DNA from: Clostridia bacterium | GTDB lineage: Bacteria > Bacillota > Clostridia > Caldicoprobacterales > UBA3941 | Length of the DNA stretch: 33,816 nt | NCBI GenBank assembly: GCA_035647175.1 | Contig: DASRNX010000065.1 | Location: 1 to 33,816 of the forward strand | Direction of reading: 5' to 3' | Shown here: positions 1,854-26,541 of the stretch, in pieces | Position numbering within the stretch: the stretch's first letter is position 1 | Layout: each line of letters opens with the position of its first letter | Notes under the pieces: generated by a model | What the model was told of the DNA's origin: nothing | The model's input: only the letters and a program-made list of their open reading frames with translations | Database searches by the model: none | Made by a program: the position numbers and the translations under genes

Positions 1854-1909
1854 GTTAACCTGTTGTGCTAGCTCAATATGTCGGTAACGAACTAGCACAA
1901 CAGGTTAAC
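1854..1909. repeat. Perfect 18-bp inverted repeat (gttaacctgttgtgctag / ctagcacaacaggttaac) with a 20-nt loop between convergent gene ends; possible atypical terminator
   Basis: Arms at 1854-1871 and 1892-1909 are exact reverse complements. A T-run precedes rather than follows the stem on the + strand, so it is not a canonical intrinsic terminator. Confidence 0.6.
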
Positions 1910-2298
1910 TAATAAATCGCTACCGGCCCGTGGGGTCCGCGGATAATTTCTATTTCCGTATCAAAAATATCGGTTAAAATTTCTTGATCCATTACTTCTT
2001 CTACCGGTCCAAATACCGCAATTTTTCCGTCCTTCATAGCACAGATCCTATCGGAATATTGCGCCGCAAAGTTTATATCATGCATCACGGTTAAAATCGT
2101 TCTTCCAAACTCATTGGCAACGTGTCTCAAGTGCTTCATCATCTGTACAGATCGGGCAACATCAAGGTTGTTGAATGCCTCATCCAGAAGCAGGTATTCG
2201 GTCTCTTGGCTTAAAGCCATAGCCACATATGCCCTTTGCCTTTGTCCCCCCGAGGAGCTCATCTAAATATCTGTTTTCCAGATCGGTGAGGCTCAAGT
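1909..2298 (-). pseudogene. Remnant of an iron-siderophore-type ABC transporter ATP-binding gene (C-terminal half only, frameshifted)
   Basis: The ORF at 1909-2262 encodes SGGQRQR (ABC signature), LLLDE (Walker B) and VMHD (H-loop). It has no Walker A or Q-loop. The preceding segment LSLTDLENRYLDEL lies in another frame (about 2255-2296), which implies a 1-nt frameshift near 2250-2256. Homology stops at the tRNA terminator. Confidence 0.75.
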
Positions 2299-9668: not shown

Positions 9669-9752
9669 GTGATCCAAAAAGGATATTCAATTACAAAACG
9701 ATCAGACAATCCGGCCTTTATATTTATCAATCCCAAATTGCAAGGATTAATC

Positions 9753-11893: not shown

Positions 11894-12827
11894 CCTTTAT
11901 TTCCCTTTGCTTGTTATAAGGCTGAAACGCCGAATATATAGGTTCAAATTGGGAGTTAAAGAGCGCAGTAGCGTGGTGTAGATAGCTTCCCTTAACATAA
12001 TATCTTAGATCAGTGATAATAGCTCTATGATTTTTCCCGTCCTTTATCCAGTCCACATGATAGTGGGGAGAAAAGTCTTTAAAAAATCGGCCTATATTGG
12101 TATCCATCACCAAACTTTCGAGCCCCGAACTGCTCCGCCTTAAGCGATCCCTCACCTCGATATCGCCCCTTAAGGTATTGACCCGTCCTGTTATGACCTC
12201 TGCACTCTTGTACAGGATAAAGTCCCATTTAAAGAGCCTCAGCATAGAGGGCATGACAACTATCTCCTGATCCGCTTCATTCCCAAAATATCGAATCAAA
12301 TTTTTGTATACCCGTCTCTTGAGTAACCATCTAAATATGAGATACAGGGCAAAGAACACTATACTGCCCACTATTCGTCCCATATGCGCCCCCTTGGAAA
12401 ATGATATTATTCCGGCCGAAATCAGCAGGGCGGGATCAAAGATCAACAACAAACCCGACTCAATTTTCTTACGATTTAAGGGCCATAGGATATTTGCGCC
12501 GTAAGAATTAAAAACATCCAATCCTATATGAAGCATATAGCCTCCAAAGGTCCAGGCAAAGATACTCCAAAAAGAAAAATCATGAAATAATCCCCTGAGG
12601 ATCCCGGAAATCATCAATGATATTATCGTTCCCATGGCTATAGAATGGGACGGTCCCCTGTGGTGCTTTAAATAGGTGTAGTCCCCCTTCAACTGGTAGA
12701 TTATATCGCCGTCGGGTATTACAGAGCCTATGAGACTGCCTATAGCCAATGGGTTATTTATTATGCCGGGCACCCCGGTTAAGCTGCCAAGCGCCAGGCC
12801 TACAACCCCATGTGTTATCAAATCCAT
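11883..12827 (-). CDS. Membrane-bound metal-dependent hydrolase, YdjM/DUF457 family
   Basis: Motifs are MDLITHG, PDGD and HRGPSHS in a polytopic protein. The start is set at the ATG at 12827 (AAGGTGA RBS), which matches the usual MD..TH N-terminus of the family. Confidence 0.75.
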   Translation of the reverse strand: MDLITHGVVGLALGSLTGVPGIINNPLAIGSLIGSVIPDGDIIYQLKGDYTYLKHHRGPSHSIAMGTIISLMISGILRGLFHDFSFWSIFAWTFGGYMLHIGLDVFNSYGANILWPLNRKKIESGLLLIFDPALLISAGIISFSKGAHMGRIVGSIVFFALYLIFRWLLKRRVYKNLIRYFGNEADQEIVVMPSMLRLFKWDFILYKSAEVITGRVNTLRGDIEVRDRLRRSSSGLESLVMDTNIGRFFKDFSPHYHVDWIKDGKNHRAIITDLRYYVKGSYLHHATALFNSQFEPIYSAFQPYNKQREIKVPV

Positions 12828-13034
12828 GTTATCACCTTTCATTTGCTTTACGATAAACATACTATATTAATGCACTGTACCGGTTAAACACCCAAATGAA
12901 CCGGCATCACAGATTACATTATGCTTCTGGCATCATAAAACATCATTACTTATATGCTGCTTATATCTATATGCTGCGAAAAATGCGTCGATCCAAGGCA
13001 GGATCAAAGGGCTCAATCGACCTTGAACCGCTAG

Positions 13035-13181
13035 ATATGTTACGAAAAAGATCTTTCAATACAAAATCAGTTAAGTTATCTGATTTTGTGTTAAAGCAAT
13101 GTATTTTTCGTAACATATGAATTGAGGATAATGTTTTACGACACCCCTATGCTAATGTAGAATGTTTGTCGTAAAATATAG
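13035..13181 (+). repeat. Family B composite inverted-repeat element, copy B1
   Basis: Roughly four-fifths of positions match the reverse complement of 19361-19508 by eye. It has a long two-tier hairpin. The outer tier is 15 bp (13035-13049 / 13104-13118) and the inner tier is 10 bp (13061-13070 / 13080-13089). A second hairpin pairs ttttacgaca / tgtcgtaaaa (13134-13143 / 13167-13176). Confidence 0.8.
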
Positions 13182-13330
13182 ACCCCCATGGAACGTACAT
13201 AGTTTACATAATATATTTTTACAGACATGATACGATTATAACATGGACTTATAGGCGTAGGCAACAACAATATGTTTTACGACAAACATTACCTATATTG
13301 GTACACAGGTCTGCTGTCTCAAAAAAGTTG

Positions 13331-13390: not shown

Positions 13391-13477
13391 GCCCGAGTGA
13401 TGGAATTGGCAGACGTGCGGGATTCAAAATCCCGTGGTAGCGATACCGTGTCGGTTCGAGCCCGACCTTGGGCACCA
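13391..13477 (+). tRNA. tRNA-Leu (anticodon CAA), class II, CCA encoded
   Basis: The sequence reads GCCCGAG..CGGGA-TTCAAAA-TCCCG..GTCGG-TTCGAGC-CCGAC-CTTGGGC-A-CCA. All arms pair, with one G-U in the acceptor stem. A long variable arm is present. Confidence 0.93.
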
Positions 13478-14255: not shown

Positions 14256-14479
14256 CTTATAACCCCCTCAAATAAGTGGTCTCATATATAAGAGCATGTG
14301 CGCTCCTTATATTGCATAGTATGTATGGGAAGCAGCTTTTGTGAATAAGGAAGTTTCTAAAATGTTTTTGCAATTTGTTATAGATAAATTTAGTTGACCT
14401 ATTGTTTATCTACAGATAATCAACTACAACTATAAAAGGGGAACCATTCCTACAATGGATTTTTGGGGAGGTTACAGTC

Positions 14480-17006: not shown

Positions 17007-19344
17007 CTCTATCCCCTTCCCTCCCTGATAGCGCATGTTCTAGGATCTCATCCATATTTTGAACCGCTACTATCTCTATTTCTTCCTTAATGTTATCCGG
17101 TATCTCCTCTAAGTCCTTGGTGTTCTCATCGGGAATTATAACTTTGGCAATCCCCGCCCTATGTGCTGCCAAGATTTTTTCTTTGAGCCCCCCTATGGGC
17201 AATACCCTGCCCCTTAGGGTAATCTCGCCTGTCATCGCTATGTCCCGCCTTACCGGCGTTTCCGTTAGGGCGGAAATAATGGCGGTGGCTATGGTAATAC
17301 CCGCCGACGGGCCGTCTTTGGGAATAGCTCCTTCGGGTATGTGGATATGGATGTCCGTATTATTATAAAAATCCGGATCTATATCAAAATCTTTGGCTTT
17401 GGATCTAATATAACTGAGACCTGCCCTGGCAGACTCCTTCATTACATCTCCCAATTGCCCCGTCAAAACCAGCTTTCCGGTCCCTACCATGGGAGTTACC
17501 TCTATATAGAGGGTATCCCCGCCCACAGCCGTCCATGCGAGCCCGGTAACCAAACCAACCTCGTCCTTCTGGTTTGCCTTATTAAAGCTAAAGCGTGGGA
17601 TCCCCAGATATTCATGAAGGTTTTTTGGCGTAATTCGAATTCGCTTTCTGCCGGCCTCCAATAGGAACCTTACCCCTTTTCTGCAGATGGCAGCTATCTG
17701 TCTTTCCAGGTCCCTTACCCCAGCTTCTCTGGTATAGTGATTGATAATGCTTCGGATGGTTTGTTCAGGAAATATGATGTTCCCTCTCTTTAATCCGTGC
17801 TCCTCCAGCTGCTTTGGTATTAGATATTTTAATGCAATATTTGTTTTCTCCTCCTCTGTGTACCCTGCGATGCGTATTACCTCCATCCTGTCCAACAGCG
17901 GGCGAGGTATCGTATCTAAGGTATTGGCGGTGGTTAAAAACATAACCTTTGACAGATCATAGGCCAGTTCCAGATAATGATCCCTAAAGGTAAAGTTTTG
18001 TTCCGGATCTAATACTTCCAGCATGGCAGACGCCGGATCTCCCCTAAAATCGCCGCTCATCTTATCTATCTCGTCCAATATAAAGACCGGATTTTTTGAT
18101 CCCGCCTGTTTAATGGAGGATATTATAGTGCCCGGTATAGAACCTACGTAGGTACGCCTATGTCCCCTGATTTCGGCTTCGTCCCGGACGCCGCCCAATG
18201 ACATGCGCACAAAGTTTCGGCCAAGAGCCCTGGCAATGGATTTTGCGATAGAGGTCTTCCCCACCCCCGGCGGCCCTACAAAACAGAGTATGGGGCCTTT
18301 CATATTCTGAGTAAGCTGCAGGACAGCCAAATACTCCATTACCCTCTCTTTTACCTTGTCCAGTCCATAATGATCCTGATCCAAAATGCGCGCCGCAGAC
18401 TTTAGGTTATGGTTATCCTTGGTCTCGTGATTCCATGGCAAATCCAATACCCAGTCCAAATAGGTACGGATAATGGAACTTTCCGGCGAGGTTAAAGGTG
18501 TCCTCGAAAAACGCTCCAATTCACTTACGGCCTTCTCATGGACCTCCTCAGGTAGTGAAGCCTTTTCTATCCTCTTGTTATAGTCCTCAACGTCAGAGGA
18601 TATACTGTCACTTTCCCCTAATTCTTTTTGGATAGCCTTCATCTGCTCCCTAAGATAGTATTCCCTTTGGACTTTATCGATCTGTTTTTTAACCCTGAGG
18701 TTGATCTTCTTTTCGATCCTCAGTATTTGAATCTCGTTTTCCAAAAATTTATGCAATATCTGAAGCCTTTCCATGGGCCTGAAGGCTTCAAGGATCTCCT
18801 GTTTATTACTGTTTTTCACTAACACATTGGCAGCTACTATATCGGCAAATTGGCCTATATCGTCTACTGTATTAACCGATACCAGAGTATCCGGGGATAT
18901 CTTATTGCTCAGCTTGATAAATTCTTCAAAGGCATCCATTACGGTTCTCATCAATGCCTCTTCTTCTAAGGGATCGCTATCCTCCTGGTCCGGTTGTTCC
19001 TCTATAAGTACCTCAAAGAACTTATCGTTGTCTAAAAACTCTACAATCCTGCCCCTGTTTATACCCTCAACCAATACTCTGATGGTATCTCCCGGCAGTT
19101 TAAGTAGCTGTTTTATCTTAGATACCGTCCCTACGGTAAATAGGCTATCCTTGTCAGGCTCTTCGACCTCTGGTTCCTTTTGAGTTACTAAAAATATATC
19201 CTGATTATTTACCATTGCATCTTCCAATGCTGAGATGGATTTTTGTCTGCCTACATCAAAATGTAGGACCATATATGGAAAAACCGTTAGACCCCGAAGG
19301 GGTAATAGGGGCATTTGTCTGGTTTTTATGTCTTTCTTTGACAT
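16987..19344 (-). CDS. lon: ATP-dependent protease Lon (LonA type)
   Basis: The 785-aa ORF has a LON N-domain, the AAA+ Walker A motif GPPGVGKTS and the protease motif DGPSAG with a downstream Lys. An AGGAG RBS is present. Confidence 0.95.
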
Positions 19345-19360
19345 CTTTCATTGCTCCTTT

Positions 19361-19508
19361 CTATATGCTTCACGACAAACATTCTACATTAATATGCCGG
19401 TGTCGTAAAACATCATGCTCAATTCATATGTTGCGAAGAATATATTGTCCCCACACAAGATCAGATGATTTAACTGATCTTGTAATGAAAGGTCTTTTCG
19501 TAACATAT
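19361..19508 (-). repeat. Family B composite inverted-repeat element, copy B2 (ends 17 nt upstream of the lon start codon)
   Basis: Its reverse complement aligns along the full length of 13035-13181. The inner stem carries a compensatory change, acaaGatcag/ctgatCttgt versus acaaAatcag/ctgatTttgt in B1. Confidence 0.8.
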
Positions 19509-19708
19509 GGAGATAACAGTCTATATGGGATGAACCAAAACGCACTTAGCATGAATCCGGAAAACTATCGGGTATCATCAAATAAACATTGTGTAGTCAA
19601 AGTCCAAAAAGTTGAATTATCCATACCGTGGATCGGCATCGTATAATATATTTTTTGAAACTTCCTCGATGAGGCCATTATATACTCAACAATAAATCGG
19701 TGCAAGGC

Positions 19709-21584: not shown

Positions 21585-21724
21585 TTTATAGCAGGCAAAG
21601 CAATTGCTACGGCAATTGCATCAGGCTGGTTTAAGCAGGGCGGGAATATATGCGCACCCCCTGTTGTACAAATCATAGCCCAATACTTATGGGAGTGAGA
21701 AACATATTACCGCCCCGTAATATT
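21585..21724 (-). repeat. Family A interspersed structured repeat, copy A2
   Basis: It has the same block order as A1. These are hairpin gcaattgc-tacg-gcaattgc (21600-21619), a GC-rich hairpin around 21636-21663, hairpin ccca-atactta-tggg, and the end motif attaccgccccgtaatatta. Confidence 0.75.
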
Positions 21725-23090: not shown

Positions 23091-23336
23091 ACTTTCACCT
23101 CTTCTTTAACTATATGTTTCGCATTAAATATTGTGTCAGATTATTTCCTTATCGCGAACCATACCGTTCTTTAATAGAGTGTTCTGTATCAGTAATGTGT
23201 GTATGCGGACAACTTAAAGTCGCCCTTGCCAATCTATGCCAATCTATGGCCTTTCCTTACATTTCGGATGTTAAAAATCATCCCGTCTCCGCCATAATAT
23301 TATCATATCGGAGGATTAAAAGCTAACCTCATACAT

Positions 23337-25333: not shown

Positions 25334-25472
25334 TTAAGATATCGGGAGTAATTGTTCTAACAATTGTATATACAGATTTCAACGAGGTGGGGATTTTTAT
25401 CCGCCGCCTGTTTTAGCTAATCGGAATCCACCACTTGAAGAAACAGTAATTGTCTTTCCGTCCCGTTATAAT
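25334..25472 (-). repeat. Family A interspersed structured repeat, copy A3 (inside the predicted tig 5' leader)
   Basis: It has the same block order as A1 and A2. The hairpin is taattgt-tcta-acaattg (25349-25366). The segment tttcaacgaggtgggg...ccgccgcctgtttta..ctaatcgga and the end motif ccgtcccgttataat follow. Confidence 0.75.
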
Positions 25473-25654: not shown

Positions 25655-26446
25655 ATGAAAGGAATGGCGCAATTGAATACTTTATTGAAGGATAAAACGA
25701 TCCTCATCATGGGGGTAGCTAACAAATGGAGCATTGCATGGGGTATCGCAGAGGCCTGCATCGATGCAGGGGCCAATATAATTTTTACATACCAGGGGGA
25801 GAGAAACCTATCCAGCCTTCAAAAGCTTACGGCAAATCTACCCAATGCTTCTTTATATAAGTGCGATGTGACGGTGGATCAAGATATTACAGACCTATTC
25901 CATGATATTGGCAACGATTTTGGGACTGTCCACGGTATAGTACATAGTATAGCTTTTGCAAAGAAGGAAGAGTTAGAGGGGGCTTACTACAACACCAGCC
26001 GGGAAGGATACCATCTGGCCCAGGACATTAGCGCCTACTCCCTGGTGGCTGTCAGCAGGCATGCCAGGCCTCTTATGCAGGATGGGGGCAGCATCCTTAC
26101 CTTAACCTATTTGGGAGGAGAGAGGGCCGTCCAAAATTATAATGTCATGGGAGTGGCCAAATCCGCCTTAGAATCGTCAGTCAGATACCTGGCGGCTGAT
26201 CTGGGCCCGGAAAATATTCGGGTTAATTCCATCTCAGCAGGCCCTATTAAGACCTTGGCAGCCCAAGGCGTCAAAGGGTTTGGGTCTATCTTAAAGGTCT
26301 ATGAGGAAAAGGTACCCCTTCGCAAAACCGTTACCCAAAGGGAAGTGGGGGATACAGCCGTCTTTTTGCTAAGCCAAATGTCTCGCGGCATAACGGGGGA
26401 AAATATCCACGTCGATGCGGGTTATCATGCCATGGGTCTTCTATAA
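25655..26446 (+). CDS. fabI: Enoyl-[acyl-carrier-protein] reductase (NADH), FabI
   Basis: Sequence resembles B. subtilis FabI as recalled (GVANKWSIAWGIA, the Y-x6-K region VMGVAKSALE, ISAGPIKT, GENIHVDAGYH). The start is ambiguous (GTG 25634, ATG 25655 or ATG 25664) because none has a well-spaced RBS. Confidence 0.9.
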   Translation: MKGMAQLNTLLKDKTILIMGVANKWSIAWGIAEACIDAGANIIFTYQGERNLSSLQKLTANLPNASLYKCDVTVDQDITDLFHDIGNDFGTVHGIVHSIAFAKKEELEGAYYNTSREGYHLAQDISAYSLVAVSRHARPLMQDGGSILTLTYLGGERAVQNYNVMGVAKSALESSVRYLAADLGPENIRVNSISAGPIKTLAAQGVKGFGSILKVYEEKVPLRKTVTQREVGDTAVFLLSQMSRGITGENIHVDAGYHAMGLL

Positions 26447-26517
26447 CTTGTGTGTTGCAATTGCTTCCGATGTTATAACGGGTCGGCAAGATGTCTCCCG
26501 CTTCTATAAGCGATGAG
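26447..26517 (+). repeat. Family A repeat, permuted junction copy A4 (right-end block fused to left-end block)
   Basis: The sequence cttgtgtgttgcaattgcttccgatgTTATAAcgggtcggcaagatgtctcccgcttctataagcgatgag corresponds to the two ends of A1 joined at TTATAA. The central GC hairpin block is absent. It starts at the base after the fabI stop codon. Confidence 0.7.
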
Positions 26518-26541
26518 TTCCTGTTATTTATTTAATGACAC

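Follow-up and report, generated by a model that had tools for sequence, protein, structure and literature searches.

The 33,816-nucleotide (nt) stretch analyzed here (contig DASRNX010000065.1 of assembly GCA_035647175.1, a Clostridia bacterium of the order Caldicoprobacterales), referred to below as the window, carries two related inverted-repeat segments, B1 and B2, close to the genes ydjM and lon. These are probably copies of a non-coding, non-autonomous mobile repeat of ∼145 to 150 bp, similar to a MITE (miniature inverted-repeat transposable element), whose family is present in several orders of Clostridia. Both segments are inserted DNA of a dispersed, decaying, non-coding family, and what favors a mobile repeat is the combination of empty sites in relatives, dispersal, unrelated neighboring genes, decay products, flanking direct repeats, and a lack of coding capacity, to which a clean insertion of a second, unrelated repeat (family A, see below) in the same genome can be added. 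The small repeat family is undescribed; it is a new family of a known kind and falls into no named one. For annotation, the hairpins upstream of lon should be read as a mobile repeat, rather than as a conserved lon control element or a part of the tRNA-Leu locus.

The two copies, which are 82 to 86% identical, comprise the following features.

13032..13183, plus strand: B1, a complete copy (core 13037-13178), nested in an older copy (E3, see below) and antisense to ydjM; 147.1 bits with the covariance model of the family.
13032-13036 and 13179-13183: direct repeats flanking B1, TAGAT and TAGAC.
13035-13049 and 13104-13118: outer stem (helix 1) of B1, ATATGTTACGAAAAA / TTTTTCGTAACATAT, a perfect 15 bp.
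13061-13070 and 13080-13089: inner stem (inner palindrome) of B1, ACAAAATCAG / CTGATTTTGT, 10 bp.
13119-13130: linker of B1, GAATTGAGGATA, 12 nt.
13131-13143 and 13167-13179: arms of hairpin 2 of B1, with TTTTACGACA paired to TGTCGTAAAA (13167-13176).
19359..19511, minus strand: B2, a complete copy within the 5' leader of lon, with its core at 19506 to 19364; 134.5 bits with the same model.

A first-pass annotation, made from the letters alone, had reported that B1 (13035-13181, plus strand) matches B2 (19361-19508, minus strand) along its whole length. This was borne out by an inverted-repeat finder, which returned arms at 13046-13180 and 19364-19498 (135 nt, 82% complementary), and by a MAFFT alignment with a mean column identity of 86% over the aligned stretch. 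The two-tier hairpin and the second hairpin that the annotation had drawn were equally evident in the letters and upon folding, as were the double change from A-T to G-C by which the inner stem of B2 (ACAAGATCAG / CTGATCTTGT) differs and the G-U wobbles that hold hairpin 2 of B2 together. The forward strands folded far better than shuffled sequences, with -46.8 kcal/mol for B1 (z = -8.3) and -44.4 kcal/mol for B2 (z = -5.1). Since the reverse strands also fold (z = -7.5 and -3.6, respectively), the palindromy is not strand specific. The 18-mer ATGTTTTACGACAAACAT, with up to three mismatches, occurred five times in the window, compared to 0.00 expected occurrences. B2 is not an assembly artefact, since two Logan assemblies made independently from the same species (L111 and L112) contain it base for base. 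Only short open reading frames (ORFs) without conservation or database relatives cross the element, whose core measures 143 to 150 bp, and a 51-amino-acid read-through translation of B2 had no relative among 5.8 billion proteins. The element had not been recognized in the first pass, and neither Rfam nor the literature searched provided a match: the window gave no hit at the Rfam gathering thresholds (not even for the tRNAs at 2347-2432 and 13391-13477 that ARAGORN found, which tempers this empty result), while permissive Rfam scans returned nothing or generic hairpin (miRNA-precursor) noise.

The sites of both copies were found unoccupied in relatives. The best named relatives of the Lon protein of the window belong to Caldicoprobacterales and Caldicoprobacter, and the comparison covered five syntenic Caldicoprobacterales genomes or metagenome-assembled genomes (MAGs), with Lon identities of 91% (L104), 90% (L105 to L107), 85% (L113), 83% (L114 to L116), and 80% (L108 to L110). 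Gene order at lon was the same in all five, with a lonB-lon spacer of ∼150 to 220 bp versus 417 bp in the window. When these spacers were aligned, the terminator, the promoter, and the ribosome-binding site (RBS) lined up, and the window and the conspecific contig L111 carried a block of ∼146 nt that ends exactly at AGAAAGGAG. The left flank of B2, ATATAGACTGTTATCTCC, was recognizable as the end of the leader of the relatives, TTGTAGGCTGCTATTGAG, so that the insertion at lon is B2 itself, with the remaining leader length resulting from other indels. Between the tRNA and ydjM, the spacer measured ∼336 bp in the three relatives that have ydjM directly after the tRNA (L104 to L106), in comparison to 672 bp in the window. 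Four relatives share the ydjM promoter and a leader ending in ..TTATGTAAACTA, followed by GAAGGTGAT; precisely at this junction, the window is longer by 358 nt (13198 to 12841). The covariance model of the family detected no copy anywhere in the loci of the relatives, and the motif TTTTACGACA was absent from them. Judged from these alignments, the element at lon and ydjM appears as a lineage-specific insertion. The first-pass annotation had proposed comparing lon upstream regions among relatives, and had allowed that the hairpins might prove unconserved or part of a known insertion sequence (IS) or MITE. The lon comparison yielded a gap at the position of the element, with no conservation of the hairpins; the relatives indeed lack them at both loci, and the element behaves like a MITE, although none of the named IS or MITE families includes it.

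The 358-nt insert at ydjM holds B1 and an older, decayed third member of the family, E3, which is present in two parts.

12841..13031, minus strand: main part of E3, in the same orientation as ydjM and ending at the ydjM RBS (..CGTAAAGCAAAT directly followed by GAAAGGTGA).
13184..13198, minus strand: left end of E3, ATGTACGTTCCATGG.., a degenerate helix-1 5' arm, which the nested B1 separates from the main part.

Remnants of E3 include the helix-1 3' arm TTTTTCGCAGCATAT and, from hairpin 2, the 5' arm ATGTTTTATGATG, the loop motif TAATGTAATCTG, and the 3' arm TATGTTTATCGTAAAGCAAAT; homology to the ydjM leader of the relatives resumes at 13199. After in silico excision of B1 and one flanking repeat, E3 aligned with B2 in the forward orientation with a z score of 5.3, and the score in the reverse orientation, 31, was inside the shuffle range. 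B1 is nested inside E3 in the opposite orientation. As the insert consists of E3 plus B1, and B2 has to be added, three insertions of the same family have occurred within 6.7 kb. E3, its interruption by B1, and a solo motif copy at 13270-13290 (see below) go beyond what had been noticed in the first pass, and the earlier placement of B1 "upstream of tRNA-Leu(CAA)" is misleading: B1 lies antisense within the 5' leader of the ydjM-like gene, nested in the older copy. The tRNA gene (13391-13477, plus strand, ARAGORN) has a promoter-like sequence of its own, TTGCAT-N17-TAATAT, which the relatives have kept, and B1 is thus not a tRNA element.

The hairpin-2 loop of E3 contains ∼48 extra nt (∼12862-12909) with a small hairpin of their own (CCGGTT...AACCGG), maybe a further small insertion. 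A contig of the same species from another sample (L118, positions 12-85) differs from the window at 12895-12965 by 5 transitions in ∼70 nt, with none in the next 100. This contig begins with a Nextera adapter remnant, TAAGAGACAG, and the transitions in the E3 region reflect either strain variation in a decayed element or low-coverage error.

Copies in other genomes were retrieved by exact arm and linker patterns, and all counts per genome are lower bounds. The outer-arm pattern (TGTTACGAAAA N40-70 TTTTCGTAACA) matched three times in Pseudobacteroides cellulosolvens and twice in a Bacillota MAG (OH_CBlB_339), which is itself a Pseudobacteroides, its ThyA being 95% identical to that of P. cellulosolvens. 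The linker pattern brought more copies, two of them in a Lutisporaceae MAG.

L119, L123, L124, and L129: at least four copies in P. cellulosolvens.
L121, L126, L127, and L130: at least four copies in the Pseudobacteroides MAG OH_CBlB_339.
L128: two copies in the Lutisporaceae MAG.

All share a layout of ∼150 nt, consisting of TATGTTACGAAAAAG, the inner palindrome, CTTTTTCGTAACATATGAATCAAGGAAAA, the second hairpin, and CATATAG. The outer stem of hairpin 1 (TATGTTACGAAAAAG / CTTTTTCGTAACATA) is invariant in sequence and the inner palindrome is variable; the unpaired linker is conserved as ATGAATCAAGGAAAA (ATGAATTGAGGATAA in the window), with an AAGGA or GAGGA that resembles a Shine-Dalgarno (SD) sequence, and the loop of hairpin 2, 20 to 30 nt long, keeps AATGTA(A/G)AATG. 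Full copies elsewhere scored 85 to 163 bits with the covariance model (147 and 134.5 bits for the window copies). Decayed forms are found as well: the inner palindrome is missing from L129, only a 3' half is present in L127, and the second copy in L128 has a degenerate or lost 5' arm. The genes next to the copies are unrelated and include lon, ydjM, folA, those for an extracytoplasmic function (ECF) sigma factor and TerC, a DUF6530 neighbor, and genes for membrane proteins. The five copies flanked by genes of one direction all share the orientation of these genes, and in 10 of 11 copies a start codon lies 13 to 140 nt ahead; the genes of the window follow the leading strand. This orientation bias may originate from target choice, strand-specific insertion, or selection.

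Exact-pattern scans of metagenome and viral collections brought no further copies, searches of plasmid and phage collections gave no match, and a gapped hairpin-2 pattern had 0 matches in metagenomes. The one linker-pattern match in metagenomes was a cobQ coding sequence, of which L131 is the same chance match; L136 turned out to be an unrelated contig-end palindrome, and the arm-pattern matches L120 (Alistipes), L122 (Ignavibacteria), and L125 (Bacteroidia) were without the rest of the element. The stretch 5835-6000 of L122, between recF/DUF721 and the next gene of an Ignavibacteria MAG, nevertheless contains the repeats TTATGTTACGAAAAAA (once) and TTTTTCGTAACATGAGTTAC (twice), separated by short tandem units; it scored 38.5 bits and is either a distant helix-1 relative or a chance match. 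A near-match at 23114 in the window, upstream of clpX, is ancestral conserved sequence with a different spacing in the relatives, and not a family member.

A third pair of filled and empty sites was found in OH_CBlB_339, where a copy lies between thyA and folA. The corresponding spacers of P. cellulosolvens (ThyA 95%) and of another Pseudobacteroides sp. MAG (89%) measure 110 and 81 bp, respectively, both without the element. The filled site reads AATTTAC-TACAT-[ATGTTACG...CAAAACATA]-TACAT-GAAATG, and TATAT is present just once at the corresponding place of the empty P. cellulosolvens site. Occupied and unoccupied orthologous sites were thus observed at three places, the lon leader, the ydjM leader, and the thyA-folA spacer. 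The direct repeats flanking the copies are TAGAT/TAGAT (L119 and L126), TACAT/TACAT (L121, with the same variant on both sides), and TAGAT/TAGAC (B1); they are perfect over 5 nt in three of the nine complete copies, a fourth matches at 4 of 5 positions, and the other five match at 1 to 3. Because the bases beside the repeat are identical on both sides, the duplication may be 3, 4, or 5 bp long. The right end of B2, CATA/TAGAA, adjoins the lon RBS (AGGAG; start codon at 19344), and on its left side, TCCAT, no matching direct repeat is visible. The ancestral sites are cTAGAAGGTGA at ydjM, whose real start is the ATG at 12827 behind the RBS GAAAGGTGA, and TGAGAAAGGAG at lon in the relatives (TAGAAAGGAG in the window). 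Both are TAGA-like and touch the SD sequence, and both insertions consequently abut an RBS without any need for selection.

These observations suggest a scenario in which the element was inserted by a transposase or recombinase, presumably acting in trans, at sites resembling TA(G/C)A(T/A), leaving direct repeats of 3 to 5 bp around the putative cut sites. B2 would have landed immediately 5' of the lon RBS and the older E3 immediately 5' of the ydjM RBS, with B1 later entering E3 in the opposite orientation, and the elements would then be transcribed as strongly folded additions of 150 to 360 nt to 5' untranslated regions (UTRs). The preferred target would thereby coincide with SD-proximal sequence, so that 5' UTRs gain 150 to 360 structured nt while promoter and RBS stay intact, a natural experiment on leaders that tolerate or exploit such insertions.

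The secondary structure of the element is kept throughout the family. In a ten-copy alignment, 95% of cells were paired and 11 of 35 pairs had changed on both sides, an observed covariation score reached by none of 500 shuffles; when the 3' partners were slid by 1 to 3 columns, the paired share fell to 32 to 52%. Helix 1 is invariant in sequence across three orders, whereas helices 2 and 3 vary yet stay paired, and covariation, for which a test had been proposed in the first pass, is clear in the latter two. Such compensatory change could also be expected if the element were a structured cis-regulatory 5'-UTR RNA (a stabilizer, processing site, thermosensor, or riboswitch-like element) that controls lon and ydjM and is kept for its fold. 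Conservation of the linker and loop sequences would fit this explanation, as would the position of both copies between a native promoter and an RBS, where they should be transcribed, the better folding of the forward strand, and the co-orientation of all informative copies with the downstream gene. We nevertheless regard it as very improbable, since the element is missing from these very leaders in close relatives, the genes downstream of the various copies have unrelated functions, B1 lies antisense inside another copy, truncated copies exist, and no Rfam match was found. Moreover, the reverse strand folds almost equally well, and with both strands folding, the covariation is equally expected of a DNA palindrome. 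In the predicted fold of the lon leader, the SD sequence is free according to the centroid structure and barely paired according to the minimum free energy (MFE) structure, with no obvious switch.

The first-pass annotation had further described all four arms as variants of one motif, ATGTT(T)TACGA(A/C)AA, arranged + - + -, and had considered an array of protein-binding sites. The pattern is true of this lineage, but in other lineages the hairpin-2 arms are unlike those of hairpin 1: they read TTTTACGACA in the window, ATGTTTTGCAATAAT / ATTATTGCAAAACAT in Pseudobacteroides, and ATATATCGCACTA / TAGTGCGATATAT in Lutisporaceae (forms also read as TTTTGCAATAAT and ATATCGCACTA, respectively). The one-motif pattern is thus not a property of the family and apparently arose in this lineage by coincidence, or because its hairpin-2 arms converged on those of helix 1. 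A promoter-like sequence lies within the same part of the element.

19381..19409, minus strand: promoter-like TTTACG-N17-TAGAAT inside B2 (9 of 12 consensus positions), pointing at lon.
13135-13163, plus strand: its equivalent in B1.

The spacing of this site differs in the Pseudobacteroides (13 nt) and Lutisporaceae copies and is not kept in other lineages, which makes it a possible but unproven extra promoter. A promoter-operator module, in which the motif and the palindrome ATGTTT-N6-AAACAT at the right end serve as a repressor or activator site for joint control of lon and ydjM, would explain why the motif is locally over-represented (5 matches versus 0 expected), why full palindromic sites stand beside the lon and ydjM RBSs with a solo copy 5 nt upstream of the ydjM -35 hexamer, why the promoter-like sequence falls between two motif copies, and why the block TAATGTAGAATGTTTGTCGT is identical in B1 and B2. 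It is very improbable in view of the absence of the motif from the lon and ydjM regions of all relatives, the quite different hairpin-2 arms and the unkept promoter spacing elsewhere in the family, the lack of a candidate regulator nearby in the window, and the frequency of the exact 18-mer, which had 23 single matches in 185,579 genomes, about chance level. The binding-site array is accordingly not supported, its single-motif pattern being confined to this lineage. By eye, the motif fitted none of the LexA/Cheo, CtsR, CIRCE, Spo0A, cre, sigma-I, or sigma-H sites. In E. coli, ydjM is SOS regulated; the motif is not the SOS box GAAC-N4-GTTC.

The solo copy of the right-end motif lies at the far side of the ydjM promoter.

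13270..13290, plus strand: solo 21-nt right-end motif, ATATGTTTTACGACAAACATT.
13235..13264, minus strand: native ydjM promoter-like TTGCCT-N18-TATAAT with an upstream TG, conserved in the relatives; E3 and B1 lie between this site and the ydjM RBS.

The 21-mer is identical at 20 of 21 positions to the reverse complement of the right end of B1, with which it brackets the 90-bp ydjM promoter/leader segment, and it replaces an ancestral sequence of nearly equal length in the relatives (a single 1-nt gap). Possible readings of the solo copy are an operator, a recombination site, or the product of a conversion. Were the 20-bp pair 13161-13180 / 13271-13290 sites of a site-specific recombinase, the segment might act as an invertible ydjM promoter switch, and the orientation of B1 might result from inversion; the 95% complementarity of the 20-nt pair around the promoter speaks for this, and so does the swap of the solo copy into place without a change in length, which is odd for a transposon remnant. 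We consider such a switch extremely improbable: the ydjM promoter is in its ancestral orientation, 90 bp is short for an inversion, the window contains no recombinase gene, the flanking repeats of B1 itself fit insertion and not inversion, and no second orientation was seen, the same-species contigs stopping short of the site.

Several observations weigh against a MITE-like repeat, the interpretation that we favor. Covariation in helices 2 and 3, the conserved unpaired linker and loop, and the strong bias in orientation are hints that a function or mechanism depends on the structure. Just four of the nine complete copies have intact direct repeats, and there are none at B2. The right-hand TAG is kept in seven of the nine and the left-hand TAG in three; being better conserved on the right, it may belong to the element rather than to a duplication. 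The strictly terminal inverted repeats are short, ∼6 to 7 bp (TATGTT...AACATA), and each end pairs with an internal partner, the long palindromes being subterminal and each internal to one half of the element. Neither the window nor ∼100 kb of copy-bearing loci yielded a transposase, a recombinase, or an autonomous element with the same ends, the copy number known so far is low (at least four per genome), and, with B1 and B2 only 82 to 86% alike, neither insertion is very recent. By analogy with single-strand (HUH) transposition, the TAG may be carried by the element, which would insert 3' of a TANAT target. In a more novel reading, the family, like bcr1 (see below), would be moved by machinery that recognizes structure instead of terminal repeats (for example, through single-stranded DNA hairpins or site-specific recombination), with helix 1, conserved across orders, as the sequence-specific recognition site, and in this lineage the right-end palindrome may have been co-opted as an operator or recombination site that couples the expression of lon and ydjM. 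The palindrome ATGTTT-N6-AAACAT does adjoin both the lon and the ydjM RBS, and its solo copy is found beside the ydjM promoter; taken as a whole, we deem this combination unlikely.

Whatever the way of insertion, the MITE-like repeats at lon and ydjM lie downstream of native promoters.

19677..19705, minus strand: native lon promoter-like TTGCAC-N17-TATAAT, read from the sequence and the alignment and present in all relatives.

This site directly follows the lonB terminator (19738-19713), ∼170 nt upstream of B2, which places B2 within the lon 5' UTR; its -35 hexamer matches the consensus at 3 of 6 positions, and the promoter scan therefore omitted it. Since both lon and ydjM retain their upstream promoters, the elements should be transcribed within the leaders. 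In view of the predicted fold, the likeliest effects of the element would be on mRNA stability or processing, and not on translation initiation, and additional transcription toward lon may start from the promoter-like site inside it.

Outside B2, the leader of lon (19512-19676, minus strand) is ∼60 nt longer than in the relatives with 90 to 91% Lon identity; a second promoter-like sequence of those relatives, TTGATGATATAAT, has been lost from it and reads TTGATGATACCCGAT. The ydjM leader (13200-13215, minus strand) ends in ATATATTATGTAAACT, with TTATGTAAAC conserved in four relatives (L104, L105, L108, and L114). This stretch equals the XerD half of the B. subtilis dif site; a dif site was dropped as an explanation, the other half varying among the relatives. 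The conserved TTATGTAAAC is probably a ydjM-specific regulatory site and not dif.

Among described small repeats, bcr1 of the Bacillus cereus group is the closest analogue. It is a non-coding element of ∼155 bp that folds into two separate stem-loops and has 5-bp direct repeats, close strains differ in its genomic distribution, compensatory changes keep its fold, it often resides in UTRs or operon spacers, and no transposase has been assigned to it (PMC3184786; PMC3446304; PMC6542083). All of these features are also seen in the window family, with the direct repeats intact at four of nine complete copies and transcription predicted. In contrast, bcr1 is confined to the B. cereus group, targets TTTAT, and reaches 11 to 130 copies per genome, whereas the window family occurs in Clostridia at TAGAT/TACAT-like sites with at least four known copies per genome. 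A blastn search with a Pseudobacteroides copy against 72,556 plasmids, including bcr1-bearing B. cereus plasmids (PMC6542083), found nothing, which is an indirect test, as the bcr1 consensus itself was not compared. The two-hairpin layout is unusual and has been documented so far mainly for bcr1; a mobilizing enzyme, if found, could also illuminate bcr1-type movement.

Correia elements (CREE/NEMIS) of Neisseria are MITEs of 100 to 157 bp beside genes, co-transcribed as long hairpins, with possible outward promoters and presence/absence differences between close strains (PMC3184786). The window family shares their small size, gene-adjacent location, and strain differences in presence. The 26-bp terminal inverted repeats of Correia elements pair end to end into a single hairpin, and these elements have a TA duplication and a site for integration host factor (IHF); the window family differs in having two hairpins with internal partners, a terminal repeat of ∼6 bp, and a flanking repeat of 3 to 5 bp. 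Palindrome-associated transposable elements (PATEs) derived from IS200/IS605, and repetitive extragenic palindromes and the mosaic elements built from them (REP/BIME; HUH/Y1), resemble the window family in having a hairpin at each end, covarying stems, and an orientation bias with the leading strand and genes. The asymmetric flanks of the window family, where TAG is conserved on the right and the left pentamer varies except for its final AT, would fit HUH insertion 3' of a short target. Elements of the IS200/IS605 type make no target duplication. The window family departs from that type in that its two hairpins are dissimilar, its hairpin-2 loop is 20 to 30 nt long, and TACAT/TACAT has the look of a genuine duplication; none of the copies had a tnpA or RAYT gene in its vicinity. 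The repeats ERIC/IRU and RUP measure ∼107 to 127 bp, contain long imperfect palindromes, and reside in intergenic regions that are transcribed (PMC3184786, Table 1). They are unlike the window family in taxon, single long hairpin, and TA flanks, and share no sequence similarity with it.

The minus strand of the window carries tig, clpP, clpX, lonB, lon, and engB and, further on, anti-sigma/DUF4349, SIMPL, and ydjM-family (PF04307) genes. A second, unrelated repeat family, probably the "family A" of the first-pass annotation with its core GCAATTGC, is found at 2525-2666, 21586-21710, 25389-25415, and 26445-26518. Its copy between clpX and lonB is a clean insertion of ∼125 nt in comparison to L104 and L105 (CATAATAT/.../TATAAA versus the empty site CATAATATAAAC), and the genome thus carries at least two families of small insertions. 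The L111 and L112 contigs end at 14379-14382, ∼100 nt upstream of a gene encoding 649 amino acids, where the repeats D2 and I3 lie (∼14354-14405; also 9706-9743), possibly another multi-copy repeat that breaks short-read assemblies. Finally, a 117-amino-acid ORF at 1909-2262 (minus strand), which adjoins tRNA-Leu(GAG) and a family A repeat, looks like a gene fragment, its match to an ABC-transporter ATPase domain being limited to the C-terminal end of the domain.

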